The translations under genes and the position numbers were made by a program. Below are positions 9,148 to 31,208 of a DNA stretch of 64,000 bases, piece by piece. Positions within the stretch are counted from its first letter, which is position 1, and each line of letters begins with the position of its first letter. The DNA is from Escherichia coli (GTDB lineage: Bacteria > Pseudomonadota > Gammaproteobacteria > Enterobacterales > Enterobacteriaceae): assembly GCF_003991155.1 (NCBI RefSeq), contig NZ_CP031293.1. One strand, given 5' to 3'. The notes beneath the pieces are model-generated. The model saw nothing but the letters and a program-made list of their open reading frames with translations, did not search any database and was not told the DNA's origin.

Positions 9148-9168
9148 CGACAGACAGGACATTTTACT

Positions 9169-10479: not shown

Positions 10480-10514
10480 TCTGCCTGTTGTAACCTTTCA
10501 AAAGGAAACTCAAT

Positions 10515-13903: not shown

Positions 13904-13983
13904 TTTAGCCCTATTACTGACAATAATGATAATTGATATTCTGAGCGTATCGAAAATAAGTCCGAATTATCAGAAGGTTTATT

Positions 13984-14756
13984 ATGAAAATACTCATTGC
14001 AGGGGCAACCGGAAGTATTGGTCTTCATGTCGTGAATACCGCTATTGAAATGGGTCATCAGCCCGTGGCGCTGGTCAGAAATAAACGCAAAGTAAAATCT
14101 CTTCCTCGTGGAACAGATGTTTTTTACGGCGATGTTTCAATGCCGGAAACACTCACCGAATTGCCGAAAGATATTGATGCCATCATCTTCACTCTCGGTT
14201 CTGATGGCCAGGGGCGTATTGGTGCCAGAGCGATCGATTACGGAGGAGTGCGTAATATTTTGCGAATATTCAGGGATACACCTGTTCGTATCAGCTAATG
14301 ACCACGATTGGCGTGACTGAGCGGCTCAGCACTTGGAATCAACGCACTGAGGTTCATGACAGGAAAAGACGTGCCGAGCGTCTGGTCAGGGCCAGCGGTC
14401 ATCCCTATATTATCGTCCGGCCCGGCTGGTTTGATTACAACAATGATGATGAACACAGGATCGTTATGCTTCAGGGGGATCGTCGCCATGCAGGAACACC
14501 GGAAGATGGTGTGATATCCCGGGAGCAAATCGCCCAGGTTCTGGTCAGTGCCCTGACCAACGACGAGGCAAAAAATAAAACGTTCGAGCTGGTGGCTGAA
14601 CGAGGTGAAGCACCACAGGATCTTACCCCACTGTTTGCAGAACTGCAGACTGATGATGCACAAAAAAATGATGGGGTTCTGGACATAGACAATATGCAGC
14701 TGAGAGAAGAACCGGAGTGCATTATTAACGAGCTGAACCTGTATTCAAAAAATTAA
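13984..14756 (+). pseudogene. NAD(P)H-binding NmrA/atypical-SDR-family oxidoreductase split by a frameshift at ~14296
   Basis: First ORF (104 aa) starts with Rossmann motif MKILIAGATGSIG; second ORF (152 aa) continues the family in another frame; junction AGCTAATGACC. Confidence 0.6.
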
Positions 14757-14897
14757 ACAATCTACAACCCTGACAATTTTGTCATATAGCGGTCAGCCTC
14801 ATGACAGTTTAAGTCTGTATATTTACATACACAAACGGGGATAGTTCCCTTGATACGAATCCAGTTTTAAACATAGATTTTAAAAGAGGTATTAAAT

Positions 14898-15149
14898 ATG
14901 AAAGCATTACTTATTACTACATTGGTCATGGGGTTTATTTCAGTGAATGCCGCATCTGCAGCTCAGGAAATTAACCATGCAGATGGGAAAGAAAAGATAG
15001 GTGTAGTCTCAGCCAGCAATGCCTATACGCTTGATGAATTATCGAATACGCTTTCTCGTAAGGCTGATGAACAAGGAGCAACATCGTTCAAAATTCTGTC
15101 AACCACGGGGAATAACCGGCTGCACGGGGTTGCTGAAATCTATAAGTAA
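14898..15149 (+). CDS. BhsA/YdgH/McbA-family (DUF1471) small secreted stress protein
   Basis: 83 aa with signal peptide and C-terminal ...LHGVAEIYK closely paralleling E. coli BhsA. Confidence 0.75.
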   Translation: MKALLITTLVMGFISVNAASAAQEINHADGKEKIGVVSASNAYTLDELSNTLSRKADEQGATSFKILSTTGNNRLHGVAEIYK

Positions 15150-15205
15150 ATCATTAGTATCCTGAGCAGGATGTGTCTTAACCCTCTTATAGCGAGCGTC
15201 GATTT

Positions 15206-15541
15206 ATGTTTAGAACAGAAGACATCATCGATGAGATAACCCAATGGATTGATTCAAATTTACATAAGCCGCTGAAGATAGAGGATGTTGCTGCGCGGGC
15301 AGGATACTCGAGGTGGCATCTTCAGCGGATTTTTGTGCAGGTGAGAGAAATTAGCCTTGGGAAGTACATAAGAGATACGAAACTTAGACTTGCAGCAAAA
15401 GATCTTATCGCGACTAATGAGCCAGTGATGGTTATCGCCTTTAAATATGGATTCGATTCACAACAAACTTTTACTCGGATTTTCTTTAAAAAATATAAAT
15501 TGCCACCATTGAAATATAGGGTAATGACTCCAACTTATTGA
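15206..15541 (+). CDS. MarA/SoxS/Rob-type small AraC-family regulator, 3' end replaced by IS1 sequence
   Basis: Two HTH regions (SRWHLQRIF... / ...QQTFTRIF) like SoxS; IS1 left end begins at 15520 inside the ORF so the last ~7 codons and the stop are IS1-derived. Confidence 0.7.
15511..15519. repeat. IS1 target-site duplication, left copy (GAAATATAG)
   Basis: Identical 9-mer directly flanks both IS1 ends. Confidence 0.8.
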
Positions 15542-16038
15542 TAGTGTTTTATGTTCAGATAATGCCCGATGACTTTGTCATGCAGCTCCACCGATTTTGA
15601 AAACGACAGCGACTTCCGTCCCAGCCGTGCCAGGTGCTGCCTCAGATTCAGGTTATGCCGCTCAATTCGCTGCGTATATCGCTTGCTGATTACGTGCAGC
15701 TTTCCCTTCAGGCGGGATTCATACAGCGGCCAGCCATCCGTCATCCATATCACCACGTCAAAGGGTGACAGCAGGCTCATAAGACGCCCCAGCGTCGCCA
15801 TAGTGCGTTCACCGAATACGTGCGCAACAACCGTCTTCCGGAGCCTGTCATACGCGTAAAACAGCCAGCGCTGGCGCGATTTAGCCCCGACGTATCCCCA
15901 CTGTTCGTCCATTTCCGCGCAGACGATGACGTCACTGCCCGGCTGTATGCGCGAGGTTACCGACTGCGGCCTGAGTTTTTTAAATGGCGGAAAATCGTGT
16001 TGAGGCCAACGCCCATAATGCGGGCGGTTGCCCGGCAT
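15535..16038 (-). CDS. insB: IS1 InsB (expressed as InsAB' by frameshift)
   Basis: 167-aa ORF matching IS1 InsB. Confidence 0.85.
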
Positions 16039-16232
16039 CCAACGCCATTCATGGCCATATCAATGATTTTCTGGTGCGTACCGGGTTGAGAAGCGGTGTA
16101 AGTGAACTGCAGTTGCCATGTTTTACGGCAATGAGAGCAGAGATAGCGCTGATGTCCGGCGGTGCTTTTGCCGTTACGCACCACTCCGTCAGTAGCTGAA
16201 CAGGAGGGACAGCTGATAGAAACAGAAGCCAC
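15957..16232 (-). CDS. insA: IS1 InsA
   Basis: [42 protein letters not shown]... Confidence 0.9.
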
Positions 16233-16287
16233 TGGAGCACCTCAAAAACACCATCATACACTAAATCAGTAAGTTGGCAGCATCACC

Positions 16288-16296
16288 GAAATATAG
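16288..16296. repeat. IS1 target-site duplication, right copy (GAAATATAG)
   Basis: Identical 9-mer directly flanks both IS1 ends. Confidence 0.8.
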
Positions 16297-16522
16297 AAAC
16301 GCGGAAAGGAGAAAAAAACTTCACCAGCCCATGTCTTAAGTTCTGTCAGTATGGCTACAGCCTGTTTGCTGAGTGGCACAAGGTGTGGTGTTCGAATCTT
16401 GGTTCCCCAATGAGAGTTCAGGCGGTGTGGGCAAATAAAAAAGAAAACATAAATAAAACCATCCGACCGTTGGTGGGGCTGGATGGTTATTCATTATTTC
16501 TATGTCACTGAACTTTCATTCA

Positions 16523-17704
16523 TCAGATCTGCTCAGAAAGTGAATCAATGTAGTCAGCATACCACTGCATCATTTCACGGCGACCATCCAGATACTGGGC
16601 ATGATTATAGGTACCTCTGATAGCGTTTTTATCCATATGAGCTAACTGCATTTCAATCCAGGCAGAATTAAAGCCCTGTTCGTGCAGAATTGTACTCATG
16701 GTGTGTCTGAAACCGTGCCCTGTGAGTCTTCCCTTATATCCTAGTAATTCAATGACTTGGTTTATGCTTTCCTTACTAATTGGTTTGCGAGGATCGTTCC
16801 TACCGATAAAGACCAGAGGATGATGTTTTGAGATTGGTTCAAGTTGCTTAAATAGCGCAATGACCTGCTCAGAGAGCGGCACAATATGAGGTCGCTTCAT
16901 CTTCATTACTTCTGCCGGGATCTCCCATAATTTTGTCTCAAAATCGATATCCTCCCAGCGTGCGAAACGCAATTCTTGAGTTCGTACACCAGTTAGCATA
17001 ATGATTTGAGTGGCTGTCTTAGTGATAATACTTCCGGTATAACCCGCCAGATCATTGAGGAAGTGGGGAAGTTCATTAGCAGTAAGAAAGGGAAAATGTA
17101 CTTTTTTCGGTGTAGCTAAAGCACTGGCAAGATCGGGAGCAGGGTTGTAGTTAGCCCGACCAGTAACAATTGCATAGCGGAACACCTCTCCACAGCGCTG
17201 GCGGACCTTACGCATTTTCTCCAGAGCTCCACGTTTTTCCATTTTACGCAATGCTTCCAGTAACTCCATTGGTTTGATTTCAGCAATAGGGCGTTTGCCA
17301 ATATAGGGAAAAATATCTTTTTCAAAGGTATCAATGATTTCATCACGATAGCGTAATGACCACCGATCGGCTTTTGACTGATGCCATTCTCGAGCAACGG
17401 CCTCAAATGTGTTTTTCAAACTCATTTGCAGCGCGATTTTTTCTTCTTTTTTTGTCTCACCCGGATCGCATCCTGCAGCGAGGATTTTCCTAGCTTCACT
17501 GCGTTTTTCGCGAGCGTCGGCTAGAGTTACATCGGGGTATACGCCAATAGAAAGCATCTTTTCTTTGCCAGCAAAGCGGTACTTCATACGCCAATATTTA
17601 GAACCATTAGTGTTAATGAGTAGATACATACCGCCACCATCAGACAGCTTATAGGGCTTTTCTTTTGGTTTTGCGGTTTTCACTTTAATATCAGTTAACG
17701 CCAT
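16523..17704 (-). CDS. P4-type (CP4-like) tyrosine integrase
   Basis: 393 aa, C-terminal HGFRHT...Y catalytic signature; lies beside the 3' end of selC in the same orientation. Confidence 0.85.
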   Translation of the reverse strand: MALTDIKVKTAKPKEKPYKLSDGGGMYLLINTNGSKYWRMKYRFAGKEKMLSIGVYPDVTLADAREKRSEARKILAAGCDPGETKKEEKIALQMSLKNTFEAVAREWHQSKADRWSLRYRDEIIDTFEKDIFPYIGKRPIAEIKPMELLEALRKMEKRGALEKMRKVRQRCGEVFRYAIVTGRANYNPAPDLASALATPKKVHFPFLTANELPHFLNDLAGYTGSIITKTATQIIMLTGVRTQELRFARWEDIDFETKLWEIPAEVMKMKRPHIVPLSEQVIALFKQLEPISKHHPLVFIGRNDPRKPISKESINQVIELLGYKGRLTGHGFRHTMSTILHEQGFNSAWIEMQLAHMDKNAIRGTYNHAQYLDGRREMMQWYADYIDSLSEQI

Positions 17705-17999
17705 GACATCCTCCGGATTTTGATGAATCCATGTTCCTGGACTTCTGCCAGTAACTGACCTGATATCCCCAATGCACCCCCATGTATAACAAAGATGTTG
17801 TTAAAAGCCGTTGTTATATATCACATTTTTTCCATTATGGGGGTGCTGATATTTTAAGAGAAAATAGTACCCCCTAAAGTACCCCCAAAAGCAACTTGAT
17901 ATGGGGTGATACCGGTTGACCTCGGGATACAAAGAAATCCTGATATACAATAGGTTATATGGAGATTGTTGATATAAGGAGAGTTCAGAAGAGGTTAAT

Positions 18000-18094
18000 T
18001 GGCGGAAGATCACAGGAGTCGAACCTGCCCGGGACCGCTGGCGGCCCCAACTGGATTTGAAGTCCAGCCGCCTCACCGGAGACGACGATCTTCC
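18000..18094 (-). tRNA. selC: tRNA-Sec (selenocysteine)
   Basis: Reverse complement reads GGAAGATCGTCGTCTCCGGTGAGGCGGCTGGACTTCAAATCCAGTTGGGGCCGCCAGCGGTCCCGGGCAGGTTCGACTCCTGTGATCTTCCGCCA (95 nt, CCA end), matching E. coli selC as recalled. Confidence 0.9.
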
Positions 18095-18386
18095 GCGCCT
18101 CGATTGCTACATGGAGGCGGGGCGCATTATAGCTACTTCCTTGAGTTTCTACATCCCCCAGATCAGTTTTTTCCGCCTAATACACGCAGCGTATTATCAC
18201 GAAAGCATTATAATTCATATAAAACCCATACTTTACAATGATATATGAGCGTAATTTACGCTACCACGATCACATAAAACAAGAATCATAAATTAATAAC
18301 CAGATATCGGAATATTCGCTCTCACAGGGATGGTTTACAAAATGCGTTATCGGTCTCAGCACCCCTATAGCATCAAGGAAAAGCAG

Positions 18387-19778: not shown

Positions 19779-22097
19779 ATGAAAATTAGCGACGGAAACT
19801 GGTTGATTCAACCTGGCCTCAATTTGATTCACCCGCTTCAGGTGTTCGAGGTTGAACAGCAGGGTAATGAAATGGTGGTCTATGCTGCCCCTCGTGATGT
19901 GCGTGAACGTACCTGGCAGCTTGATACGCCTTTATTTACGCTGCGCTTTTTCTCCCCACAGGAAGGTATTGTCGGTGTACGGATTGAGCATTTTCAGGGG
20001 GCGCTGAATAACGGTCCTCATTATCCGCTCAATATTTTGCAGGACGTGAAGGTCACAATCGAAAACACAGAACGTTACGCTGAGTTTAAAAGTGGCAACT
20101 TAAGCGCGCGTGTCAGCAAAGGTGAGTTCTGGTCACTGGATTTTCTGCGCAACGGCGAACGTATTACCGGTAGTCAGGTGAAAAATAACGGCTACGTGCA
20201 GGACACGAATAATCAACGAAATTATATGTTTGAGCGGCTGGATCTTGGCGTTGGCGAAACAGTTTACGGTCTGGGAGAGCGCTTTACTGCCCTGGTGCGC
20301 AATGGCCAGACGGTAGAGACCTGGAACCGGGACGGCGGCACAAGTACTGAACAGGCGTATAAAAATATTCCGTTCTATATGACTAACCGTGGTTATGGGG
20401 TACTGGTCAATCATCCTCAATGCGTCTCTTTTGAAGTGGGATCGGAGAAAGTCTCCAAAGTGCAGTTCAGCGTTGAGAGTGAATATCTCGAATACTTTGT
20501 TATCGACGGCCCGACGCCGAAAGCGGTACTTGATAGTTATACCCGTTTTACTGGTCGTCCGGCGCTGCCGCCCGCGTGGTCCTTCGGCCTGTGGCTAACC
20601 ACTTCATTTACCACCAACTACGACGAAGCGACGGTAAACAGCTTTATCGATGGTATGGCGGAACGCAATCTGCCGCTGCATGTTTTCCACTTTGACTGTT
20701 TCTGGATGAAAGCCTTCCAGTGGTGCGATTTTGAGTGGGACCCGCTGACTTTCCCGGACCCGGAAGGGATGATCCGCCGCCTGAAAGCGAAAGGGCTAAA
20801 AATCTGCGTCTGGATTAACCCCTATATCGGGCAAAAATCCCCTGTCTTTAAAGAGTTACAAGAGAAAGGTTATTTACTCAAACGCCCGGACGGTTCGCTG
20901 TGGCAGTGGGATAAATGGCAGCCAGGTCTGGCGATTTATGACTTTACCAATCCGGATGCCTGCAAATGGTACGCCGACAAACTGAAAGGTCTGGTCGCGA
21001 TGGGCGTTGATTGCTTTAAGACCGACTTTGGCGAACGTATTCCAACCGATGTTCAATGGTTTGATGGTTCCGATCCGCAGAAAATGCATAACCATTATGC
21101 GTACATCTACAACGAACTGGTGTGGAACGTGCTCAAGGAAACCGTTGGCGAGGAAGAAGCCGTCTTGTTTGCCCGCTCGGCCTCCGTCGGTGCGCAGAAA
21201 TTCCCGGTACATTGGGGTGGCGACTGTTACGCTAACTACGAATCAATGGCGGAAAGCCTGCGCGGTGGTTTGTCTATTGGCCTTTCTGGTTTTGGCTTCT
21301 GGAGCCACGATATCGGCGGCTTTGAGAATACCGCTCCGGCGCACGTTTACAAACGCTGGTGCGCGTTTGGTTTGCTCTCCAGCCATAGCCGTTTACACGG
21401 CAGCAAATCTTATCGTGTGCCGTGGGCCTATGATGATGAGTCCTGTGATGTGGTGCGCTTCTTCACGCAACTGAAATGCCGCATGATGCCGTATCTGTAT
21501 CGTGAAGCTGCACGTGCAAACGCCCGGGGTACCCCGATGATGCGGGCCATGATGATGGAGTTCCCGGACGATCCGGCTTGTGATTACCTTGACCGTCAAT
21601 ACATGTTAGGCGATAACGTGATGGTTGCTCCGGTGTTCACTGAAGCGGGCGATGTGCAGTTCTACCTGCCGGAAGGTCGCTGGACACACCTGTGGCACAA
21701 CGATGAACTCGACGGTAGTCGCTGGCATAAACAGCAGCACGGCTTCCTGAGTCTGCCCGTTTATGTGCGTGATAACACCCTACTGGCGCTGGGCAACAAC
21801 GAGCAACGTCCCGATTACGCGTGGCACGAAGGCACGGCATTCCAGCTCTTTAATCTGCAAGACGGGCATGAAGCCATCTGTGAAGTGCCCGCTGCCGATG
21901 GTTCCGTTCTTTTCACCCTGAAAGCGGCGCGTACTAGCAACACAATTACTGTGACTGGTGCGGGCGTGGCGAAGAACTGGACGCTGTGCTTGCGCAATGT
22001 TGTGAAAGTAAATGGTCTGCAAGGCGGTTCGCAGGCTGAAAGTGAGCAGGGGCTGGTGGTGACGCCTCAAGGGAATGCGCTGACAATTACGTTGTAA
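19779..22097 (+). CDS. yicI: alpha-xylosidase (GH31)
   Basis: 772 aa, GH31 catalytic region (WIDMNE-like / KTDFGE motifs). Confidence 0.9.
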
Positions 22098-22111
22098 TCT
22101 ATTGAAGAATG

Positions 22112-22142
22112 CCGGATACGAATGGTTTTGTGTCGTATCCGG
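22112..22142. repeat. perfect 10-bp inverted repeat (CCGGATACGA / TCGTATCCGG) downstream of yicI
   Basis: Seen directly; REP-like or terminator hairpin without T-tract. Confidence 0.4.
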
Positions 22143-22391
22143 TAAATAATCTCACATCTGGTAATAAATATTTCTTCCATCGTATTTGCGAGCATGATCA
22201 CGATTATTCATCACGAAAATGTGATCTGTGCTGAAAAATATCCCTTAACCGCCTTGCTTTGTTTTATCACTGTCCGGATTACGGACATATTTTAGTATTG
22301 TTGTGAAATTATTCTGCTTTATATTTACCCTCAGAGATGGCAACTGAAGCTCTTCCTCATAGGGCTTCTTAATCTGTGATAAGGGTAAAAA

Positions 22392-23945
22392 ATGCAAATG
22401 ATTACCTCGCGACAAAACAGATTATTACGATTCCTTTTACCTCGAAGGGAATATACGACTATTGTTACGATTGCCGGCTATTTAAATGTTTCGGAAAAAA
22501 CCATTCAACGTGATTTACGTTTACTTGAGCAATGGCTGGGGCAATGGAGAATAAATGTTGAGAAGCGTGCTGGCGCGGGTGTGATGTTAAGCGCGGAGAA
22601 TATTGCTGATTTGCTGCATCTTGATCATTTGTTGGGAGCAGAATGTGAAGAGATTGATGGTGTAATGAATAATGCCAGGCGCGTTAAAATAGCGTCGCAG
22701 TTATTAAGTGAAACACCGAATGAAACGTCGATCAGTAAATTGTCAGAACGCTACTTTATCAGCGGAGCCTCTATTGTTAATGACCTGAGAGTAATTGAGT
22801 CCTGGCTTGCGCCGTTGGGGTTATCATTGATCCGCAGCCCAAGTGGTACGCATATTGAAGGTAGTGAAGGGCAAGTCCGACAGGCAATGGCATTACTGAT
22901 TAACGGCATTATTAACCATAATGAGCCGCAAGGTGTCGTGTATTCACGTCTGGATCCCGGAAGTTATAAAGCATTAGTCCATTATTTTGGAGAAGAAGAG
23001 GTGTTATTTGTCCAGTCATTGTTACTGGATATGGAAAATGAATTAAGTTGGTCTTTGGGAGAGCCTTATTACGTTAACATTTTTACTCACATCCTTATTA
23101 TGATGTATCGCAACACGCACGGGAATGCGTTATCCAGAGAAGAAGATCAAACCAGGCAATATGATGAAAATATCTTTAATGTTGCCAGTCAGATGATTCA
23201 TAAGATAGAACAACGAATTGCACATACATTGCCCGATGATGAAGTCTGGTTTATTTATCAATATATCATTTCATCAGGTGTGGCGATTGATGGACAAAAA
23301 GATGTGAGCATTATTTCACATATGCAGGCCAGCAATGAAGCGCGTCTGATTACCTGGCGTTTAATTACGGTATTCAGTGACATCGTGGACTGCGATTTTA
23401 GTGAAGACAGCGCATTATATGATGGCTTGTTGGTTCATATTAAGCCGCTGATTAACCGACTAAATTATCGCATTCATATCCGTAATCCATTGCTGGAAGA
23501 TATTAAAGCAGAATTAGCGGATGTCTGGCGGTTGACGCAATATGTGGTGAATCAGGTATTTAAAACCTGGGGTGAGAATGCAGTGAGCGAGGATGAAGTG
23601 GGTTACCTGACCGTTCATTTTCAGGCTGCGATGGAGCGGCAAATTGCCCGTAAACGCGTATTACTGGTCTGTTCAACCGGAATCGGAACTTCGCATCTAC
23701 TGAAAAGCCGTATTCTGCGAGCGTTTCCTGAATGGACGATTGTTGATGTTATTTCAGCAGCGAATTTATCACAGGTTTTGCCTGACAATATCGAACTGAT
23801 TATTTCGACCATTAATTTGCCTACAGTCACTATGCCGGTCGCTTATGTTACCGCTTTTTTTAATGATGCCGATATTAAGCGGGTCACTGAAATGGTGATT
23901 ACGGAAAAATTACATCATGCGACGTCTCGGGTCGTTGAAATTTAA
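22392..23945 (+). CDS. PRD-containing transcriptional regulator (BglG/MtlR/LicR-type activator with EIIB/EIIA-like domains), frz-like operon
   Basis: 517 aa; N-terminal HTH, central PRD-like regions, C-terminal CSTGIGTSHLL EIIB-like motif. Confidence 0.7.
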   Translation: MQMITSRQNRLLRFLLPRREYTTIVTIAGYLNVSEKTIQRDLRLLEQWLGQWRINVEKRAGAGVMLSAENIADLLHLDHLLGAECEEIDGVMNNARRVKIASQLLSETPNETSISKLSERYFISGASIVNDLRVIESWLAPLGLSLIRSPSGTHIEGSEGQVRQAMALLINGIINHNEPQGVVYSRLDPGSYKALVHYFGEEEVLFVQSLLLDMENELSWSLGEPYYVNIFTHILIMMYRNTHGNALSREEDQTRQYDENIFNVASQMIHKIEQRIAHTLPDDEVWFIYQYIISSGVAIDGQKDVSIISHMQASNEARLITWRLITVFSDIVDCDFSEDSALYDGLLVHIKPLINRLNYRIHIRNPLLEDIKAELADVWRLTQYVVNQVFKTWGENAVSEDEVGYLTVHFQAAMERQIARKRVLLVCSTGIGTSHLLKSRILRAFPEWTIVDVISAANLSQVLPDNIELIISTINLPTVTMPVAYVTAFFNDADIKRVTEMVITEKLHHATSRVVEI

Positions 23946-23971
23946 TGTCAGAATTTTATGAGGTATGACGA

Positions 23972-24442
23972 ATGGACATAACAAAAATCCTGAATACGAA
24001 TCGCGTTATTTTAGATATGCAAGCGACGAATAAAGCGGAGGCGATTGAAGAATTAACTAATCTTCTCAAAAAAGATGGTGCGATCGATTGTCGGGAAACC
24101 TTTATTAAAGATGTCTGGCAGCGCGAAGCGGAAGGCTCGACTGGTTTTGAAAATCATATTGCGATCCCGCATGGTAAATCTTCTGCGGTAATTAATACTA
24201 CGCTGGCAATTGGCCGTACCCGCCAGGATATTCCCTGGGAAACGCTGGATGGCAGTAGCGTGCGCTGTATTATTTTATTTGCGGTACGTCTTGAAGATCA
24301 AAATACCACTCATATCCGTTTACTTTCCCAGGTCGCGGGCGCGCTGGCGGATGATGACATCATAGAACAATTGTTAGTTGAGACGAGTCCGCAAAAAATC
24401 ATTGATCTCTTTAGTCAGTATGCACAATCCGATGTCTGCTAA
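23972..24442 (+). CDS. PTS EIIA component (fructose/mannitol family)
   Basis: 156 aa with HIAIPHGK phosphorylation-site motif. Confidence 0.8.
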   Translation: MDITKILNTNRVILDMQATNKAEAIEELTNLLKKDGAIDCRETFIKDVWQREAEGSTGFENHIAIPHGKSSAVINTTLAIGRTRQDIPWETLDGSSVRCIILFAVRLEDQNTTHIRLLSQVAGALADDDIIEQLLVETSPQKIIDLFSQYAQSDVC

Positions 24443-24459
24443 ATAACAGGGAGTATGTC

Positions 24460-24774
24460 ATGAATATTGTCTGTGTTGCCGCCTGTACGGCGGGTATTGC
24501 TCATACCTATATTGCTCGTGAAAAGTTAATCAAAGGAGCAAAAGCTCTGGGCCATACCATTAAAGTTGAAACCCAGGGAACCATTGGTACAGAAAATGAA
24601 TTACAGGCGGCAGATATCTCTGCTGCTGACGTCGTGATTCTTGCTGTAGATGTGAAAATAAAAGGAGAAGAACGCTTCACCAATAAACGTATTGTGCGAG
24701 TAAAGACAGAGATCGTCATTAAATCGCCCGTTCAATTTCTTGAAAAGGTCGAAAAATCACTGGGAAACAAATGA
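24460..24774 (+). CDS. PTS EIIB component (fructose-like)
   Basis: 104 aa, N-terminal VAACTAGIAHTY cysteine phosphorylation motif. Confidence 0.8.
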   Translation: MNIVCVAACTAGIAHTYIAREKLIKGAKALGHTIKVETQGTIGTENELQAADISAADVVILAVDVKIKGEERFTNKRIVRVKTEIVIKSPVQFLEKVEKSLGNK

Positions 24775-24798
24775 TCCTTATACTGGAGGGATCTTAAT

Positions 24799-25890
24799 AT
24801 GAAAGACAATAAAATTCCGGTTTCACAGGAAATTAAAAAACATTTATTAACCGGCATCTCGTGGATGATACCCCTTATTGTGGCCGCCGGGATATGTATT
24901 GCGTTGGGGCAAGTTCTTGGCGGTACAGATGTTGGTGAAAAAACAGGAACAATCCCGTGGATGCTTAATCAGATTGGCGGCTGGGGAATGGGGCTGATTG
25001 TGCCGCTGATTAGCGCGGCAATTGCCTATTCTATTGCCGATCGTCCCGGATTTGCCCCGGGTCTGATTGTCGGCTTTCTCTGTGGGCAAATCCATACCGG
25101 ATTTATTGGCGGTATGTTGGGTGGTTTCCTGGTGGGCTACACCATTTTGCTACTTAAACGCTATATCCGCCTGCCGCAGTCGATGCAAGGACTCATGCCA
25201 ATCATGGTGTTGCCGGTATTAAGCACCATTATCGGTGGGCTGTTAATGATGACGCTGATTGGTAAACCCATCGCCTGGTTACAAGAAGCACTGATTCATT
25301 TGCTCGAGTCGATGCAGGGCGGATCGCGCTTCCTGATGGGGGCCATACTTGGCGCGATGGCAACCTTCGATTTCGGTGGTCCGGTCAACAAAACCATGTC
25401 GCTGTTTTCCGATGGCTTGCTGGTCAGTGGCGTCTACGGACCAGAAGCCGTGAAATTTGTCGGCTCAATCATCCCTCCGTTTGGCATCACACTTTCGTTC
25501 TTACTGACACGCCATAAATACACCCGTGCGGAGCGCGAGGCGCTGAAAGCCGCGTTTCCGATGGGGATCTGCATGATCACTGAAGGAGTCATTCCGATCG
25601 CCGCGCGTGACCTGCTGCGAGTAGTGGGATCTTGTGTGGTGGCATCGGCGGTCGCGGGCGGCTTAATCATGGTGTGGGGCGTGGAGAGTCCGGTTCCGCA
25701 TGGCGGCATGTTTGTTGTGCCTCTGTTCACCCATCCTCTGCTGTTTTGCCTGGCGCTGGGTATAGGCACGGTGATTTGTGGCGTGATGCTTTCACTCTGG
25801 AAGAAACCGGTAACGGAACGCGACGAAGAGTTTGACGAACTGAGCGATCAAAAGCTGAAAGATGAAGAGATCACTTTCACCCTCGAATAA
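24799..25890 (+). CDS. PTS EIIC permease (fructose-like)
   Basis: 363 aa polytopic membrane protein following EIIA/EIIB. Confidence 0.8.
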   Translation: MKDNKIPVSQEIKKHLLTGISWMIPLIVAAGICIALGQVLGGTDVGEKTGTIPWMLNQIGGWGMGLIVPLISAAIAYSIADRPGFAPGLIVGFLCGQIHTGFIGGMLGGFLVGYTILLLKRYIRLPQSMQGLMPIMVLPVLSTIIGGLLMMTLIGKPIAWLQEALIHLLESMQGGSRFLMGAILGAMATFDFGGPVNKTMSLFSDGLLVSGVYGPEAVKFVGSIIPPFGITLSFLLTRHKYTRAEREALKAAFPMGICMITEGVIPIAARDLLRVVGSCVVASAVAGGLIMVWGVESPVPHGGMFVVPLFTHPLLFCLALGIGTVICGVMLSLWKKPVTERDEEFDELSDQKLKDEEITFTLE

Positions 25891-25901
25891 CCGGAGGCCC
25901 T

Positions 25902-26753
25902 ATGTTTGCCGATATGAAAAGTATGGTGATGAAAGCCTGGCATGAACATTACGCCTTACTGGCGATCAACTGTATGAATCTGGAAAGTGCTCACGCAGCT
26001 ATCCGCGTGGCGGAGAAGAATCGCGCTCCGATCATTCTCAATCTCTATCAGGGGCATCTGGCGCATTTTCCAGCACCCGTCGCGGCGGCAGTGGTTAAAA
26101 CGCTCGCGGAATCTGCCTCAGTACCGGTCGCTCTGGCGCTTGATCATGGCAAAAATCCGGACTGTATTCGTCAGGCGTTTCGTGCTGGTTTCAGCGGATT
26201 AATGATTGATGCTTCTGCTTTTCCCCTGGAGGAAAACGTGCGCCAGACCAGGGCGGTGGTGGAACTCGCCGCCAGCGTGCAGCTCTGCGTGGAAGGCGAA
26301 CTGGGCCATCTGGCAGATGCGCCGCGTTACGACCAGGCCGCCAATGCAGACCTGATGACGCAACCCACTGATGTGGAACCGTTTATCGCGCAGACAGGCA
26401 TTGATCTACTGGCCGTCTCGGTAGGCACGGCGCACGGCATGTACGCGCCTGGTGTTGTACCTGCTATTGATTTTCAGCGTCTGGCGGAGATTTTCCACTG
26501 CTCGAGCGTGCCTCTGGCATTACATGGCGGTAGCGGTACGCCGTTCGATCAGCTCCAGCTCTGTACGACGCTGGGGGTAGCAAAAATCAACGTGGGGGCG
26601 GCCATTTTTGAACGGGGGAAATCCGCGCTCCTGCATACCCTCTGTCACGATATATCCATTGAACTGGTGGACGCGCTGAAAGCTATGGAACTGGCCTTCG
26701 AAGAAGCGATTACACCGTATTTACAGGCGAGCGGCTCTATCGGCAAAGCCTGA
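25902..26753 (+). CDS. class II ketose-bisphosphate aldolase (GatY/KbaY-like)
   Basis: 283 aa, LDHG and HGGSG motifs. Confidence 0.8.
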   Translation: MFADMKSMVMKAWHEHYALLAINCMNLESAHAAIRVAEKNRAPIILNLYQGHLAHFPAPVAAAVVKTLAESASVPVALALDHGKNPDCIRQAFRAGFSGLMIDASAFPLEENVRQTRAVVELAASVQLCVEGELGHLADAPRYDQAANADLMTQPTDVEPFIAQTGIDLLAVSVGTAHGMYAPGVVPAIDFQRLAEIFHCSSVPLALHGGSGTPFDQLQLCTTLGVAKINVGAAIFERGKSALLHTLCHDISIELVDALKAMELAFEEAITPYLQASGSIGKA

Positions 26754-26833
26754 TTCATTTTCTGTCATGGCCTTTATGCCAGTGCAATAACGCACCGGCA
26801 GGGCGGACTACACGCTGAAACTGGAGATTTAAC

Positions 26834-27694
26834 ATGTTAGTTTCGATGAAAGAATTACTGCAACCTACCCGCCAGCACGGCTTTGCCATTGGCGCATTTA
26901 ATGTGGCGGATAACTGTTTCCTTCGCGCAGTCGTGGATGAAGCAGAAGCGACAAATACTCCGGCGATTATTGCCATCCATCCCAGCGAACATGATTTTGT
27001 GGGCGATGCCTTTTTCGCTCACGTTCGCGAAATTACCCAGCGTAGTCCGGTCCCGTTTGTACTGCACCTCGATCATGGTGCCTCTGTAGAGCATGTTTTG
27101 CGTGCGATTCGCTGCGGATTTACCTCAGTAATGATCGACGGTTCGCTGCTGCCGTATGAAGAAAACGTGGCGCTGACCGCAGAAGTGGTTCGCCTCGCTC
27201 ACGCGGTTGGAGTGTCGGTTGAGGGTGAACTGGGAACCATCGGACAAACAGGAACGTCGGTAGAAGGTGGTGTTTCACAAGTGACCTACACAGATCCGGC
27301 GCAGGCCGCCGATTTTATTGCTCGTACAGGTGCCGACACTCTGGCTGTGGCGATTGGTACAGCACATGGCATCTATCCAAAAGGGATGCAGCCGAAGCTG
27401 CAAATGGACATTTTGCGCGACATTGCCGGACGTATTGATATTCCGCTGGTGCTACACGGTGGTTCGGCAAACCCGGACGCGGAGATTGCTGAATCAGTTA
27501 CGCTCGGCGTCGGCAAAATCAATATCTCCAGCGATATGAAATACGCCTATTTCCAGAAAGTGCGTGAAATTCTCGCTAAAGAGAGCTGGTGGGACCCGAA
27601 CGTCATCTATCCGGATGCGATTAACGCGGCGCGGGAAGTCATTCGCCACAAAATGAAACTGTTCGGTTCGCTCGGTAAAGCATCACTGTACTAA
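26834..27694 (+). CDS. class II ketose-bisphosphate aldolase, second copy
   Basis: 286 aa, same family motifs (HLDHG, LHGGS). Confidence 0.8.
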   Translation: MLVSMKELLQPTRQHGFAIGAFNVADNCFLRAVVDEAEATNTPAIIAIHPSEHDFVGDAFFAHVREITQRSPVPFVLHLDHGASVEHVLRAIRCGFTSVMIDGSLLPYEENVALTAEVVRLAHAVGVSVEGELGTIGQTGTSVEGGVSQVTYTDPAQAADFIARTGADTLAVAIGTAHGIYPKGMQPKLQMDILRDIAGRIDIPLVLHGGSANPDAEIAESVTLGVGKINISSDMKYAYFQKVREILAKESWWDPNVIYPDAINAAREVIRHKMKLFGSLGKASLY

Positions 27695-27708
27695 GCCAGA
27701 AGGGCGGG

Positions 27709-28674
27709 GTGACCCGCCTTTTACGCAACAAGGAACGAGAAATGCACTATCTGGGGTTGGATATTGGTGGGACCAAAATCGCCGCCGTCGTCATGGATGC
27801 GCATGGCTGGGAGATTCGCCGTTACCGCTGCCCGACGCAAAAGTCGACATATCAACAATTTGTCTCATGTGTTGTGGCGCTTATCGAGCAGATTAGGCGG
27901 GACGTTCAACGACCGATGCTGACAGGGATCGCCTTACCCGGCAGTATCTCGCCACTCACTGGCCTGATTAAAAACGCGAATATTCAGGTGATTAACGGTC
28001 ATGCGTTACAGGCTGATTTGCAGCAATTGCTTGGGCAACCGGTGGTGATAGCCAATGATGGTAACTGTTTCGCGCTATCAGAAGCTTGCGACGGTGCCGG
28101 GCAAGATTATGACGTGGTATTTGGTATTACGCTTGGTACGGGCTGCGGCGGTGGCATTGCCATCAAGCAACGACCGTTTATAGGGGCCTGGGGAAATGCT
28201 GCCGAATGCGGTCATATCACGTTGCCAGGCTATACGGAGCAGGAAGATGGTCCATCAGTCAGTTGCTATTGCGGCAAACACAACTGCGTGGAGTCGTTTG
28301 TTTCCGGCAGCGGTTTTAGTGAACGCTATCAACAGATGACTGGTAACTTGCTCACTCCTGCGGCGATTGTCACCCTGGCACAACGTGGTGATGCTGGTGC
28401 CATGCAGCAGGTGGCACGTTTTCGCCAACAGCTTGCCCGCACGCTGGCAACCATCGTTAATGTTGTTGACCCTGGCGTGATTGTGATCGGCGGCGGGCTT
28501 TCGAATGTGGAACTGCTTATCACCGATCTGAACGCAGAAGTTGCTCCACTGGTTTTCACCGATCAATTCACCACTCCCATTGTAAAAGCACAGCACGGCG
28601 ACAGTAGCGGAATGCGTGGCGCTGCCTGGCTTGCTATGCGCAACGGAGAAGCCAATGAAACGTTCACAAATTAA
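27709..28674 (+). CDS. ROK-family sugar kinase
   Basis: LGLDIGGTKI ATP motif and CxCGxxxC zinc motif; start may be the internal ATG at 27742. Confidence 0.8.
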   Translation: MTRLLRNKEREMHYLGLDIGGTKIAAVVMDAHGWEIRRYRCPTQKSTYQQFVSCVVALIEQIRRDVQRPMLTGIALPGSISPLTGLIKNANIQVINGHALQADLQQLLGQPVVIANDGNCFALSEACDGAGQDYDVVFGITLGTGCGGGIAIKQRPFIGAWGNAAECGHITLPGYTEQEDGPSVSCYCGKHNCVESFVSGSGFSERYQQMTGNLLTPAAIVTLAQRGDAGAMQQVARFRQQLARTLATIVNVVDPGVIVIGGGLSNVELLITDLNAEVAPLVFTDQFTTPIVKAQHGDSSGMRGAAWLAMRNGEANETFTN

Positions 28675-29335
28675 TTATGTTATTGATAAAGCACATGCCA
28701 TTGCGCAGACCTTCCGCGTTTGTTTGCCAGAGTTCGCCTATTTTACGGTGGATGACTGGCTGCAGCGGGAACGGGATAACTGGCAAGAAGTGGTCGACTT
28801 ACAGCTCGGTTGGGATATCACCGATTTTGGTCGTGGTGATTTCAACCAAACGGGACTAACACTGCTAACGATGCGCAACGGCGCGCTGGGGTCGGCGGCA
28901 TATCCAAAACCGTATGCTGAGAAAATGTTGCAGATCCAACAAGATCAGCAGACTCCCTGGCATTTTCACACCCACAAAATGGAAGATATCCTCAATCGGG
29001 GCGGTGGAGACTTATGCATGCAGTTGGCCTGGGCCAACGAAGCCAATCTCTGTGATGATCAACGAGTCATTACCGTGAGTGTTGATGGTCAGCGGCGTAC
29101 CATGAAACCTGGTGAAACGCTGGTGCTAAAGCCGGGGCAGGGCATTTGCCTGCCGCCGCGTCTGTATCATCGCTTCTGGGCGGAAAAAGCGTTTGTTCTC
29201 GGCTGGGAAATTTCGATGGTAAATGATGACCAACACGATAATTATTTTCTTGAGCCGGGAGGACGTTTTCCGGCGATAGAAGAAGATGAACCGGTGAAAT
29301 GGTTATTGTGCAGTGAGTATGGAATTTTGCGCTAA
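28655..29335 (+). CDS. cupin-superfamily sugar isomerase (D-lyxose/D-mannose isomerase-like)
   Basis: Histidine cluster WHFHTHKMEDI; start taken at ATG 28655 with RBS GGAGAA, overlapping the kinase stop. Confidence 0.65.
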   Translation: MKRSQINYVIDKAHAIAQTFRVCLPEFAYFTVDDWLQRERDNWQEVVDLQLGWDITDFGRGDFNQTGLTLLTMRNGALGSAAYPKPYAEKMLQIQQDQQTPWHFHTHKMEDILNRGGGDLCMQLAWANEANLCDDQRVITVSVDGQRRTMKPGETLVLKPGQGICLPPRLYHRFWAEKAFVLGWEISMVNDDQHDNYFLEPGGRFPAIEEDEPVKWLLCSEYGILR

Positions 29336-29344
29336 TAACGGGGA

Positions 29345-29372
29345 ACGCTAGCGCTGATATCCGCTAGCGTCC
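29345..29372. terminator. hairpin between convergent cupin gene and yicH
   Basis: GAACGCTAGCG...CGCTAGCGTCC imperfect inverted repeat followed by TTATTTTT. Confidence 0.5.
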
Positions 29373-29378
29373 TTATTT

Positions 29379-31088
29379 TTACTGCACCGGCTCCGTCGAC
29401 GTAACTTCACCACTGGAAACGACGCCCGCATTTATGGTTTGAGTCACTTGCTGCTTTGCGGCATTCACGGCATGCAATTGCCCGCTAACCGTAGGTTTCA
29501 GCGGGACATTGGCCTGAATATCGCCACTGGCGGTAAGCTGAATATTGCCGTCGCCAGTCAACGGTAATTCAGGCCATCCCCAATGTTGCAAAATATTCAC
29601 CGGCACACCGCGTCCATTCAGGCTGATATGGGTCTGACGTTGTGGCGTTTGTGAAACACTGGCGGTGGCTTCCAGAATGCCTTTTTCAGTAAATGCACTC
29701 AGTTCGCTGATATTCACCGTGCTGCTGTTGGCGGTCAGCGCCAGCGATGGGCGACGAACATCAACACGATTGAATGTCGCGGCGGCGGCATTCAGATTCG
29801 CCGAACCACTCCAGACGCCCCATTTATGATCGGTAACCAGCGTCAGGTTGGCACCGTAACCATCGAGCGCGGTGAGCTGCCACGGGAAGTCAGGGTCGAT
29901 ATCAATGATCAGATTGCGGCTGGCGCTAAATCTCTTCAGTTGCAGGCTGTTTAACCAACCGGGTGTCGTTTCCATCCACAACTGTTGCCAGTTTTTTGGC
30001 AAGGTATATTCCAGTCCGGCAATTGCCGCATCATCGAGGATCAACATTTTCCCGTCACGCAACCAGTTCCCTGACGTTCTGACCATGCCCCCTTCCCAGC
30101 GGCTGGTGAACTGGCGCAGTGCTACGCCCTGCGGGGAAAATTCCGCGTTTATAATCGGGTCAAATAAATGCAGCGAACCATAAATGAACTCGCTGGCGTT
30201 CATCGACAGTTTGCCTTCCTGTGTCTGCCAGTCATCTTTACTGAAGGTCATGTTGCGCAAGCTGAGATCGAGGTCGGTCACCGCCCAGTCCGGACCTTGC
30301 AAACGAGCATCGATCACTTCCAGGCGACCAATCTGCAACGACGGGACAGAGCGTAATGGCGCAAAGAAGTCGGTTAGCGATTTTTCGCTTTGTAGACGGA
30401 TATCCGCCATGCGCAGATTTTCCACTTGCCAGCTGCCGTCGGCGTTACGCTGCGCGTTTCCGGTTAATGTCCCGCGGGCGATGTCGGCACCCAGGTTAGT
30501 CAGCGTAACGCGATCGTTATCAATACTGCCTTCAATCAGTACATTGGTGGCAGGAACATCATTGAGCGAAAGCGATCCGGCACTAAACTGAATCTGCGCC
30601 TTCGTACCCAGCACTTTACCGGCTTCTGGTGACCACGGAACCACGCCGCCATTTACCCGCTGCGCGCTCAGTTTCCATTCGCTATTCGGGCTATTAAACG
30701 CCATATTACGCAGTTGCAGACGATCGGCTTTGAACGGTAGCGGCGCGGTCTGGTCGGTGAGATTCAGCGTCCCGTTTTCCAGCAGGATGGTATCGACATG
30801 GCGTGGTTCGGTCAGTTGCCGACTGCTTAGCGCAATGTCGACACTTTTTGCCACCAGGGTCGCGGGCTGGCCATCACGACCAAACGTGACGTTCTCCAGC
30901 ACGATATGAGATGGCGCGGAAAAACGGTGATCCATCGCCCCGAAGGCCAGATGATAGTCGCTATTCTCGGAAACCCATGCGCTGATATGTTCTGCTCCCC
31001 AGCGAGTTTGCAGAAGAAAATAGAGGCCAGCGATCACCACTAACAGAGCGATGAGAATGTAGAGAAGCAGCTTCCCAATAAATTTCAT
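29379..31088 (-). CDS. yicH: AsmA-family protein
   Basis: 569 aa from MKFIGKLLLYILIALL... Confidence 0.9.
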   Translation of the reverse strand: MKFIGKLLLYILIALLVVIAGLYFLLQTRWGAEHISAWVSENSDYHLAFGAMDHRFSAPSHIVLENVTFGRDGQPATLVAKSVDIALSSRQLTEPRHVDTILLENGTLNLTDQTAPLPFKADRLQLRNMAFNSPNSEWKLSAQRVNGGVVPWSPEAGKVLGTKAQIQFSAGSLSLNDVPATNVLIEGSIDNDRVTLTNLGADIARGTLTGNAQRNADGSWQVENLRMADIRLQSEKSLTDFFAPLRSVPSLQIGRLEVIDARLQGPDWAVTDLDLSLRNMTFSKDDWQTQEGKLSMNASEFIYGSLHLFDPIINAEFSPQGVALRQFTSRWEGGMVRTSGNWLRDGKMLILDDAAIAGLEYTLPKNWQQLWMETTPGWLNSLQLKRFSASRNLIIDIDPDFPWQLTALDGYGANLTLVTDHKWGVWSGSANLNAAAATFNRVDVRRPSLALTANSSTVNISELSAFTEKGILEATASVSQTPQRQTHISLNGRGVPVNILQHWGWPELPLTGDGNIQLTASGDIQANVPLKPTVSGQLHAVNAAKQQVTQTINAGVVSSGEVTSTEPVQ

Positions 31089-31208
31089 GGTCTTCCATCC
31101 CGTGAAATGCACATAAGGGAGTTATGCACGATTTACGCGCAATCCTCAAGGCGGGAATGGTGAAAGAGGTGAGACTGCGGCGGTAATTATCTTACCGCCG
31201 CCAGTGAA

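Follow-up and report, generated by a model that had tools for sequence, protein, structure and literature searches.

The frz operon was first described in the avian ExPEC strain BEN2908 (Rouquet et al. 2009, J Bacteriol 191:4427). According to the genome paper of that strain, frz (7227 bp) is located between yicH and yicI, and its genes have been reported to be 'transcribed in one operon'. The phenotypes given in the literature comprise fitness when oxygen is restricted and during late stationary phase, the ability to grow in serum and in the gut, and a fim switch that is biased to ON. The fourth gene (orf4), encoding the IIC subunit of a PTS fructose transporter, is used as an APEC marker gene (PMC8896058), and where PMC12928451 cites Rouquet et al. 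2009 the operon is described as statistically associated with, not specific for, virulent avian ExPEC.

We have analyzed a 64-kb stretch of Escherichia coli DNA (the window). The list of its open reading frames showed eight co-directional genes on the plus strand at 22098-29378, between yicI, the last gene of the yicJI operon, and yicH; these bounds run from the nucleotide after the yicI stop codon to the one before the yicH stop codon. The segment is the published, and hence already known, frz operon. A reading of the sequence alone had proposed this match, and a direct comparison with the reference locus (BEN2908, NZ_LR740776.1, 3991960-3999186) bore it out: the alignment is gapless and collinear across 11,318 nt, and the frz genes have a nucleotide identity of 98.97-100% per gene (frzR 99.0%). 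Moreover, the published frz PCR primers (PMC6238794) match the window with 0 mismatches at two sites within frzR (22797-22816 and 23620-23639) and give an amplicon of exactly 843 bp, as stated. The chromosomal site, the eight genes, their order, the absence of indels and the PCR amplicon are thus shared with BEN2908, whereas the difference within frz is allelic only (40 mismatches in 6759 nt of coding sequence). The flanking genes yicI and yicH are 2-3% diverged, and therefore the host lineage is not that of the ST95/B2 strain BEN2908.

In K-12 MG1655, yicI and yicH are convergent and separated by a spacer of merely 52 bp. The adjacency of the two genes in K-12, as stated in the sequence-only reading, is thereby confirmed: MG1655 does not carry the genes at this site, and frz is indeed a discrete accessory module that K-12 lacks. 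As the REP-like hairpin behind yicI is common to the K-12 spacer, the additional DNA corresponds to about 22144-29378, and the left boundary of the presence/absence polymorphism lies at the hairpin. The cryptic K-12 operons frv, frw and fry resemble frz in their fructose-family EII components, yet differ from it in regulator type and enzyme complement.

Table 1. Position of the frz genes, their flanks and the associated sequence elements in the window, with the evidence for each.
Feature	Position	Strand	Evidence and remarks
yicI	19779-22097	+	GH31 alpha-xylosidase; left flank; Pfam Glyco_hydro_31 domains; RefSeq annotation
REP-like hairpin	22111-22143		just 3' of yicI stop; also in K-12 spacer; junction alignment with K-12
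CRP-like site (putative)	22187-22202	+	TGCGA-N6-TCACG; conserved block in 14-species alignment 5' of frzR
Operator-like motif	22271-22298	+	TGTCCggattacGGACAtatTTTAGTAT; TGTCC-N7-GGACA-N3-TTAGTAT; candidate FrzR binding site
Putative sigma-70 promoter	22298-22325	+	weak -35 TTGTTG (22298-22303); 16-nt spacer; -10 TATATT (22320-22325)
frzR	22392-23945	+	PRD-containing transcriptional activator; Pfam HTH_11, Mga-HTH, PRD x2, PTS_IIB (EIIB-like)
frz EIIA	23972-24442	+	fructose/mannitol-type; AIPHG phosphorylation motif; PF00359 (EIIA_2) E 4e-35; TIGR00848 127 bits > 103.5 cut-off
frz EIIB	24460-24774	+	fructose-type; CTAGIAHT cysteine loop; TIGR00829 100 bits > 76.9 cut-off
frz EIIC permease	24799-25890	+	fructose-type; TIGR01427 311.6 bits > 157.6 cut-off
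Class II ketose-phosphate aldolase 1	25902-26753	+	PF01116 E 3e-75; metal-ligand motifs LDHG, GTAHG, LHGGS
Class II ketose-phosphate aldolase 2	26834-27694	+	PF01116 E 8e-91; NF006042 subfamily 526 bits > 405 cut-off
ROK-family sugar kinase	27742-28674	+	PF00480 E 7e-74; nearest fructo(manno)kinase Mak and NagK; RefSeq start adopted
Cupin sugar isomerase	28655-29335	+	PF07385 (Lyx_isomer) E 6e-87; D-lyxose/mannose-isomerase type
Intrinsic terminator of operon	29345-29380	+	9-bp stem, 6 GC pairs, then CCTTATTTTT; abuts yicH stop codon; terminator scan
yicH	29379-31088	-	AsmA family; right flank; Pfam AsmA; RefSeq annotation

The gene content that had been proposed, i.e. a PRD-type activator, EIIA, EIIB and EIIC, two class II aldolases, a ROK kinase and a cupin, was backed throughout by Pfam and NCBIfam (Table 1). 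The Frz EIIB scores best on the NCBIfam models for the 'fructose-like' EIIB proteins of K-12, yet stays below their cut-offs. Aldolase 2 is the sole frz enzyme to reach an NCBIfam family cut-off, for a model named merely 'hypothetical protein', and is found in all related loci. Aldolase 1 is the faster-evolving paralogue, is missing in some relatives and scores under every NCBIfam equivalog cut-off. Both match the AgaY/KbaY structures at 1e-40 to 1e-50, and the operon shares with the galactitol, N-acetylgalactosamine and D-tagatose pathways (GatY/KbaY) the coupling of a PTS to a terminal class IIb ketose-bisphosphate aldolase. However, the scores are below the cut-offs for tagatose-bisphosphate aldolase, the GatZ/KbaZ partner and the tagatose-phosphate kinase are absent and two PF01116 paralogues are found instead, and the PTS is of the fructose and not of the galactitol or mannose family. 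The ROK kinase matches NagK in the PDB (6e-55) and remains below the cut-off of the fructokinase model NF007108 (317 versus 443 bits). The cupin aligns over its full length to 3KMH/3MPB (E 4e-64), the D-lyxose isomerase Z5688 of E. coli O157:H7, with retention of the HxH...E and ...H motifs that would bind the metal; nevertheless, it is a paralogue in another locus and scores below the equivalog cut-off (NF051472, 272 versus 350 bits).

The six-gene core of frz extends to the Firmicutes. The order regulator-EIIA-EIIB-EIIC-aldolase(-aldolase) is shared by clusters in Citrobacter, Klebsiella michiganensis/grimontii, Kosakonia, Phytobacter, Pantoea, Erwinia and Pectobacterium, as well as in Listeria marthii, Paenibacillus and Lachnospiraceae; the matching genes of Listeria monocytogenes are presumably lmo2133-lmo2138. 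The Enterobacterales and L. marthii clusters also have the upstream operator motif in common with frz. The kinase and isomerase genes are optional, as neither is found in Pantoea, Erwinia and Pectobacterium; the ROK gene is missing in many Citrobacter and present again in Lachnospiraceae, and Anaerostipes has an extra PfkB kinase. Unlike frz, the clusters of Paenibacillus and some Erwinia lack aldolase 1. The Lachnospiraceae regulator (~655 aa) has a detected C-terminal EIIA domain, whereas a domain search of FrzR yielded no C-terminal EIIA-like domain; the regulators of Paenibacillus and Sebaldella are likewise ~655 aa and comparable at least in length. No function was reported for the orthologous clusters in the literature searched, and the gene neighbours of frz in other genera were uninformative on the substrate.

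The successive gaps between the genes from frzR to the cupin gene are 26, 17, 24, 11, 80, 47 and -20 nt, and the terminator scan found none within the frz genes and one at the end of the operon. The eight genes would thus form one transcription unit, in the order of Table 1, driven by a promoter about 70 nt 5' of frzR and ended by the terminator abutting yicH. The 14-species alignment of the region upstream of frzR revealed, besides the CRP-like site, a second conserved block (TGTGATCTG, 22220-22228); at the place equivalent to the former, the sequence in Pantoea and Erwinia reads TGTGA-N6-TCGCA. A new detail is the conserved operator-like motif: TGTCY-N6-9-GGACW-N2-5-TTAGTRT precedes frzR in 61 of 69 related loci, with invariant arms and a variable spacer across species, is unique within the window and has a single other occurrence in 3.07 Mb. 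The promoter block TTATATTTA is kept across the Enterobacteriaceae, and a -10-like hexamer 21-23 nt past TTAGTAT also occurs in Paenibacillus, Listeria and Sebaldella, so that the arrangement of operator and -10 is maintained between E. coli and these genera; a generic consensus promoter scan made no call at the putative promoter. Considering this association, which comes from phylogenetic footprinting, FrzR probably binds the TGTCC-N7-GGACA-TTAGTAT element beside the weak -35 and autoregulates the operon.

FrzR is most likely an activator that binds DNA and is controlled by the PTS, like MtlR, LicR and ManR. In the mannose and mannitol systems of Bacillus subtilis (ManR-ManP-ManA and MtlR-MtlAF-MtlD) the PTS transporter is under control of a PRD-containing DNA-binding activator with the architecture HTH-Mga-PRD-PRD-EIIB-like, as in FrzR, and ManP belongs to the fructose family, as does the Frz PTS. 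These systems differ from frz in the terminal EIIA-like domain, which FrzR lacks, and in the downstream enzymes, which are aldolases in frz instead of an isomerase or dehydrogenase. As for the pathway, the fructose-family PTS would take in and phosphorylate a carbohydrate, and the two metal-dependent class II aldolases would cleave the ketose phosphate, or a bisphosphate made by a housekeeping kinase, to triose units. The E. coli frz operon lacks a dedicated kinase of the 1- or 6-phosphofructokinase type, which leaves a gap between the PTS product and the aldolase. Because their presence in relatives is patchy, the ROK kinase and the lyxose/mannose-type isomerase may represent an optional side branch that channels a free aldose or ketose into the route. 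Overall, we consider it very probable that the segment is a BEN2908-type frz operon that acts as a PTS/aldolase catabolic unit and constitutes an old, variably retained module.

With respect to the regulator, RefSeq names the product 'BglG family transcription antiterminator', the PRD region aligns with LicT and GlcT, and the terminator scan flags 22271-22287, a hairpin followed by TATTTTAGTA, which could be a terminator that FrzR overrides as a BglG-type RNA antiterminator. However, no CAT RNA-binding domain was found in FrzR, and its N-terminus has HTH_11 and Mga DNA-binding domains instead. Moreover, the arms of the hairpin are invariant with zero compensatory changes while the spacer is free, as is typical of a DNA palindrome bound by a protein, the conserved -10-like element is situated 3' and not 5' of the hairpin, and an Rfam search gave no match; antitermination is therefore highly improbable. 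A role of Frz as chiefly a sensory phosphorelay deserves more weight, although we consider it rather doubtful. FrzR and the Frz PTS proteins would then, through their phosphorylation state, report a carbohydrate or energy cue and alter the expression of other loci such as the fim switch, with catabolism being secondary, so that the idea is compatible with a catabolic unit and differs from it in emphasis. In line with this, the reported phenotypes concern stress fitness, adhesion and the ON/OFF bias of fim and not growth on a sugar, no Frz substrate was reported in the literature searched, and FrzR falls in the broad class of the virulence regulators Mga/AtxA/AcpB (N-terminal matches to NF053736, 5e-23, and to PDB 4R6I and 9ATX). 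Nevertheless, the catalytic motifs are kept in all four enzymes, and the PTS and aldolase genes have stayed together as a conserved core from Enterobacterales through Firmicutes and Sebaldella, as is characteristic of a functional catabolic pathway. Activator and metabolic enzymes are, reportedly, both required for the phenotypes, which also counts against a mainly sensory role.

A further alternative concerns the origin of the module, which the sequence-only reading had called 'inserted', that is, a horizontally acquired islet that entered between yicI and yicH in an ExPEC/B2-type ancestor. It would account for the absence of frz from K-12 and ~70% of the complete E. coli genomes and for the low GC content of the 5' third of the operon (42-44% in the first 2.7 kb, frzR to EIIB, versus 50-56% in the rest), and the frz alleles are 98.4-100% identical among E. 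coli versus 2-3% divergence of yicI/yicH, which fits later recombinational spread. Yet such an acquisition is improbable, as the same site is equally occupied in other genera. The order yicJ-yicI-frz-yicH is found in at least five genera of Enterobacteriaceae, and in 16 loci of Escherichia, Citrobacter, Superficieibacter, Phytobacter and Klebsiella yicI lies upstream and yicH downstream. The divergence of frz, both in protein and at third codon positions, is the same as in the flanking genes and mirrors how closely the genera are related (third-position identity to those genera 42-64% for frz and 45-56% for the flanks). The allele that the non-coli Escherichia representative MOD1-EC7003 carries at this site is deeply diverged (92-98% nt), and a close donor outside Escherichia is lacking, the best relatives being 68-85% nt identical. 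The segment is devoid of an integrase, a tRNA gene, IS elements, terminal repeats (direct or inverted) and a target duplication, and an independent deletion is documented in E. coli HS-02, which retains only the promoter of frz and 266 nt of frzR. The module is old, and its polymorphism is most plausibly explained by some lineages having kept it and K-12-like ones having deleted it; loss from the latter is more likely than gain in ExPEC. The 20 listed frz-negative genomes have near-identical spans (1272 nt in 18 and 1271 nt in 2) and thus essentially the same empty junction. Within E. coli, however, the history is not simply vertical: between the window strain and BEN2908 frz is 0.6% diverged and the flanks 2.1-2.9%, i.e. 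4-5 times more, which points to spread by recombination or to frz alleles that coalesced more recently.

The distribution within E. coli bears on the claim that the operon marks the strain as ExPEC-like, which turned out to be weak. The operon is present in 1606 of 5426 complete E. coli genomes (29.6%), and among the carriers are the probiotic strain Nissle 1917, the EPEC (enteropathogenic) strain E2348/69 and isolates from wildlife, wastewater and livestock. The presence of frz is not a specific marker of extraintestinal pathogens; the source strain of the window is a human rectal-swab isolate.

The interval between yicI and yicH in the window is filled by eight open reading frames on the same strand, and a comparison with the ORF list, Pfam, NCBIfam and RefSeq confirmed the genes, their kinds and their coordinates as proposed by the sequence-only reading. 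The neighbourhood it had given for K-12 is also correct: in MG1655 just 52 bp lie between yicI and yicH, and they hold none of these genes. The source strain E. coli 2016C-3878 (human rectal swab) is 100% identical here and its RefSeq annotation lists the same eight genes. The proposed match to the frz operon was borne out by comparison with the locus of BEN2908, the avian ExPEC strain in which frz was first described, and by a match to published primers. The BEN2908 genome paper equates genomic region 27 (GR27, 'yicH..yicI') with frz as described by Rouquet et al. 2009, an operon of 7227 bp. According to the BEN2908 annotation the gene order is the same as in the window, and the two loci are collinear with zero gaps across 11,318 nt, with an identity of 98.97-100% for each of the eight frz genes. 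Moreover, the primers that PMC6238794 gives for the frz marker, with an 843-bp product, align with 0 mismatches and predict a product of 843 bp (see the table). Since location, gene content, collinearity and primer product all agree, the segment is the frz operon and, by each of these tests, an ordinary allele of it.

The operon is therefore already known, and what we add will not surprise the specialist. In the literature frz has been associated with fitness when oxygen is restricted and late in stationary phase, and with a preference for the ON orientation of fim, tying carbohydrate sensing to stress fitness and type 1 fimbrial expression, and it is reported as a marker in typing schemes for avian-pathogenic E. 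coli. Our modest additions concern the likely polarity (loss over gain), the breadth of carriage, a core shared across phyla, and a candidate operator with its promoter.

Coordinates of features in the window (nt)
Feature	Position	Strand	Remark
tnaC-tnaA	<1300		far end of the selC island
selC island	~1860-18100		tyrosine-integrase island
Island integrase gene	16523-17704	-
tRNA-Sec	~18000-18094
yicI	19779-22097	+
frz segment	22098-29378	+
CRP-like TGCGA-N6-TCACG	22187-22202		conserved block
TGTGATCTG	22220-22228		conserved block
Palindrome TGTCC-N7-GGACA, followed by invariant TTTAGTATTGT	22271-22287 (palindrome)		conserved block; candidate operator
TTATATTTA	22319-22327		conserved block
Putative -10	22320-22325
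frzR ribosome-binding region			conserved block
frzR	22392-23945	+
frzR, EIIA and EIIB genes	22392-24774	+	GC 42-44%
frz marker primer	22797-22816	+
frz marker primer	23620-23639	-
EIIC to cupin genes	24799-29335	+	GC 50-56%
Aldolase 1 gene	25902-26753	+
Aldolase 2 gene	26834-27694	+
Strong terminator, followed by T run	29345-29370		abuts the yicH stop; single in the operon
yicH	29379-31088	-

The operon had been described as inserted between yicI and yicH, which would make it an acquisition of ExPEC lineages. The short yicI-yicH interval of K-12 agrees with such a gain; a comparison across genera points the other way. We scanned the GTDB set (one genome per species) with the EIIC protein, used the best 80 of 186 matches, and tabulated the eight Frz proteins together with YicJ, YicI and YicH in each returned locus by tblastn. 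At least 16 of these loci have yicI 5' (in all but one also yicJ) and yicH 3' of the operon. They come from Escherichia sp. MOD1-EC7003, Citrobacter (eleven loci), Superficieibacter (two), Phytobacter and Klebsiella, and the species include Phytobacter ursingii, Klebsiella michiganensis and K. grimontii. In addition, Mangrovibacter has kept the yicJI side, and Kosakonia and Phytobacter diazotrophicus the yicH side. Protein identity to the window tracks relatedness for insert and flanks alike; for instance, in Citrobacter youngae it amounts to 88% for YicI, 82% for YicH and 77-97% for the Frz proteins. The identity at third codon positions to Citrobacter, Phytobacter and Klebsiella is equal for frz (42-64%) and flanks (45-56%), both being saturated. 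No integrase, transposase or insertion sequence, tRNA or attachment site was found inside or at the edges of the segment, and a repeat search returned no terminal direct or inverted repeats and no target duplication there, all pairs being short and at chance level; the segment thus lacks the hallmarks of a genomic island or mobile element. Finally, all that E. coli HS-02 (NZ_CP172818.1, locus L083 4001-4520) has of the operon is its promoter region and 266 nt from the start of frzR, which run straight into a yicH shorter by 9 nt; the remnant marks a deletion that arose independently. Taken together, the shared site, the flank-like divergence, the lack of mobility features and the HS-02 deletion make it rather probable that frz is an ancestral enterobacterial locus that was retained in some E. 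coli and lost in K-12-like lineages, and less likely that it was inserted. The lack of other named Escherichia species among the matches was considered as a sign of gain within E. coli and rejected, because the best 80 of 186 matches hold no E. coli representative either and the scan therefore does not inform on absence.

Within E. coli, the divergence of frz and its flanks does not fit a purely vertical history. Compared to BEN2908 (locus L084, NZ_LR740776.1; window 19795-31112), the frz genes have diverged by 0.6%, which is 4-5 times less than the adjoining yicI (2.9%) and yicH (2.1%). The reverse is seen for most frz genes in MOD1-EC7003: frzR, EIIC, the two aldolases, ROK and cupin share 92-96% identity with the window, as against 97-98.5% for yicJ/yicI. 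Recombination across the locus would be the simplest explanation, and the pattern suggests breakpoints at or near the edges of the operon. At selC, beyond yicJI as seen from frz, there is by contrast a true mobile island. It contains a 3-oxo-tetronate kinase/aldolase/DeoR metabolic cluster, fragments of IS66 and IS110, and a remnant of RepA. Elsewhere in 2016C-3878, outside the window, IS621 splits bcsG and IS1 truncates gadX (compared loci L086 31016-33974 and L087 37018-38618). In K. michiganensis and K. grimontii (L020 and L023 14694-18457) an extra module, comprising an RpiR regulator, a GH4 glycosidase and a glucose-family PTS EIICB, separates yicH from the frz cupin gene, which implies that the yicI-yicH interval took in other sugar modules in other genera.

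The operon was also taken to mark the strain as ExPEC-like, and this view did not hold. With the insert alone as megablast query, frz was found in 1606 of 5426 complete E. coli genomes (29.6%), whatever their pathotype; 1601 of these carriers have it near full length, at an identity of 98.4-100% and, in nearly all, at a single place. The total number of matching places is 1611, with one on a plasmid and two places in a few genomes. The carriers comprise uropathogenic and avian strains, but also Nissle 1917, the enteropathogenic E2348/69, and isolates from wildlife, livestock, rivers and wastewater, so that frz alone is no ExPEC mark. A statistical enrichment of frz in virulent avian isolates has been claimed in the literature. 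In 20 sampled frz-negative genomes that have both flanks, including K-12 and O157:H7, the span is 1272 nt (18 genomes) or 1271 nt (2 genomes), and this near-constancy indicates essentially one common short spacer. A further sampled genome, CUPF09, gave a match to yicH alone (87.9% identity). The source strain is chuA-positive, which places it outside phylogroups A, B1 and C, and in yicI and yicH it differs by 2-3% from BEN2908 and by about as much from K-12. An annotation of frz warrants neither a novelty flag nor use as a pathotype indicator, and the operon is most plausibly seen as a long-standing enterobacterial locus that was lost from some lineages of E. coli.

The three PTS components belong to the fructose family, considering the scores for EIIA (TIGR00848, 127 bits versus a cut-off of 103.5), EIIB (TIGR00829, 100 versus 76.9) and EIIC (TIGR01427, 311.6 versus 157.6). 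The translations contain HIAIPHGKS in EIIA and AACTAGIAHTY in EIIB, the motifs with the phosphorylatable His and Cys of this family. The NCBIfam models for FruA, MngA, Frv and Frw, and all those of equivalog level, remained below their cut-offs. Both aldolases are full-length PF01116 proteins in which the metal-ligand motifs Asp-His, GTAHG and LHG(G/A)S are all present; among structures, they come closest to class IIb aldolases for fructose- and tagatose-bisphosphate and to YdjI. Specificity for fructose-1,6-bisphosphate or tagatose-1,6-bisphosphate could not be assigned, as every equivalog model in NCBIfam scored below its cut-off; aldolase 2 alone passes an NCBIfam subfamily model, one that is recognised yet carries no functional name. 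For the ROK protein the closest relatives are fructo(manno)kinase and NagK. The cupin matches PF07385 (Lyx_isomer, E 6e-87) and conserves the metal ligands in an alignment to 3KMH. It aligns end to end with the D-lyxose isomerase Z5688 of O157 and has kept the cupin motifs, but is a paralogue of that enzyme and stays below the equivalog-level cut-off (NF051472, 272 versus 350 bits).

The regulator FrzR has an HTH_11 domain (residues 7-63), an Mga domain (100-169) and a PRD match in two stretches (E 2e-30, the best at 324-413), which is the layout of the MtlR/LicR/ManR-class activators. An EIIB(Gat/Lac)-like domain follows the PRDs, with a borderline PTS_IIB match at residues 422-498 (24.4 bits versus a cut-off of 23.6) and a CSTGIGTS loop. 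A Lachnospiraceae homologue of 657 aa carries EIIA_2 at 517-656, whereas FrzR, which ends at residue 517 and has no Pfam match to the C-terminal EIIA(Mtl/Fru)-like domain, and all its enterobacterial orthologues lack it; among activators of this class FrzR thus represents a truncated form. RefSeq names the protein 'BglG family transcription antiterminator'. A match to the CAT RNA-binding domain (CAT_RBD) was not found in FrzR, whose N-terminus is formed by HTH_11 and Mga. Considering these DNA-binding domains, the product name is misleading and probably wrong.

The gaps between the frz genes are 26, 17, 24, 11, 80, 47 and -20 nt, and this close spacing, together with the single strong terminator that a terminator scan revealed at the end, implies one transcription unit, as is also stated in the literature. 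Our promoter proposal derives from phylogenetic footprinting. An alignment of the 300 nt 5' of frzR from 14 Enterobacteriaceae showed discrete conserved blocks (see the table) amid unalignable sequence. The composite motif TGTCY-N6-9-GGACW-N2-5-TTAGTRT precedes frzR in 61 of the 69 loci with enough upstream sequence, including those of Pantoea, Erwinia, Pectobacterium and Listeria marthii. Elsewhere it occurs once in 3.07 Mb of locus sequence, and in the window it is found a single time. Near variants are present in Paenibacillus and Sebaldella, with a -10-like hexamer 21-23 nt after TTAGTAT in every case. The arms of the palindrome never vary and its spacer does, as would be expected of a DNA site recognised by a protein rather than of an RNA stem; an Rfam scan of 21900-29600 yielded zero matches at E<=1. 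We consider the palindrome/TTAGTAT element a candidate FrzR operator that would lie against a weak -35, with the putative -10 within the downstream block. A generic sigma-70 scan returned nothing in the region upstream of frzR.

Across taxa the constant core consists of the regulator, EIIA, EIIB, EIIC and aldolase 2, and aldolase 1 is usually present as well. The ROK and cupin genes are variable; ROK returns after the aldolases in Lachnospiraceae, and Anaerostipes has an additional PfkB kinase. The most likely scheme, each step of which we infer, would run from PTS uptake via aldol cleavage to trioses. The PTS would take up and phosphorylate a ketose-type sugar, and the product would be cleaved either as such or once a housekeeping or PfkB kinase has phosphorylated it; ROK and isomerase would form an accessory branch for the free sugar. 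A bolder version, which we consider unlikely, would have frz as an ancient PTS-aldolase regulon with its own conserved operator, extending from Enterobacterales to Firmicutes and Sebaldella. As its core lacks a sugar-phosphate kinase, both class II aldolases might use the ketose monophosphate delivered by the PTS as it is, in the way that YdjI handles its substrate. Frz would then define a route for breaking down a carbohydrate that is not so far recognised as feeding E. coli, and would account for the better fitness of frz-positive lineages in gut and serum; K-12 would lack frz because its lineage deleted what had been an ancestral trait of enterobacteria. For the more general scheme of uptake and cleavage, neither the searchable literature nor the gene neighbourhoods of frz in Pantoea, Pectobacterium, Klebsiella and Mangrovibacter yielded a substrate. 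The neighbours considered as evidence (a TonB receptor, a gyrA-like parC, the RpiR-GH4-PTS module and a TPP enzyme) were discarded as unrelated to the operon, and the Listeria homologues lmo2133-lmo2137 appear in the searched literature in omics mentions that give no function. The candidate operator and the cross-phylum core constitute concrete handles for finding the substrate.

The GC content steps up abruptly within the operon, between the EIIB and EIIC genes, and is 37% in the region 5' of frzR. In C. youngae (L004) an ERIC/IRU-like repeat of ~125 bp separates the conserved promoter blocks from the ribosome-binding site of frzR, and the distance from operator to start codon is ~255 nt as compared to the usual ~131 nt. 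The same 255-nt offset was observed in L007, L008 and L010 (C. braakii and C. portucalensis are among these four loci), which probably carry the same insert. In Citrobacter sp. wls619 the offset is larger still, at ~333 nt.
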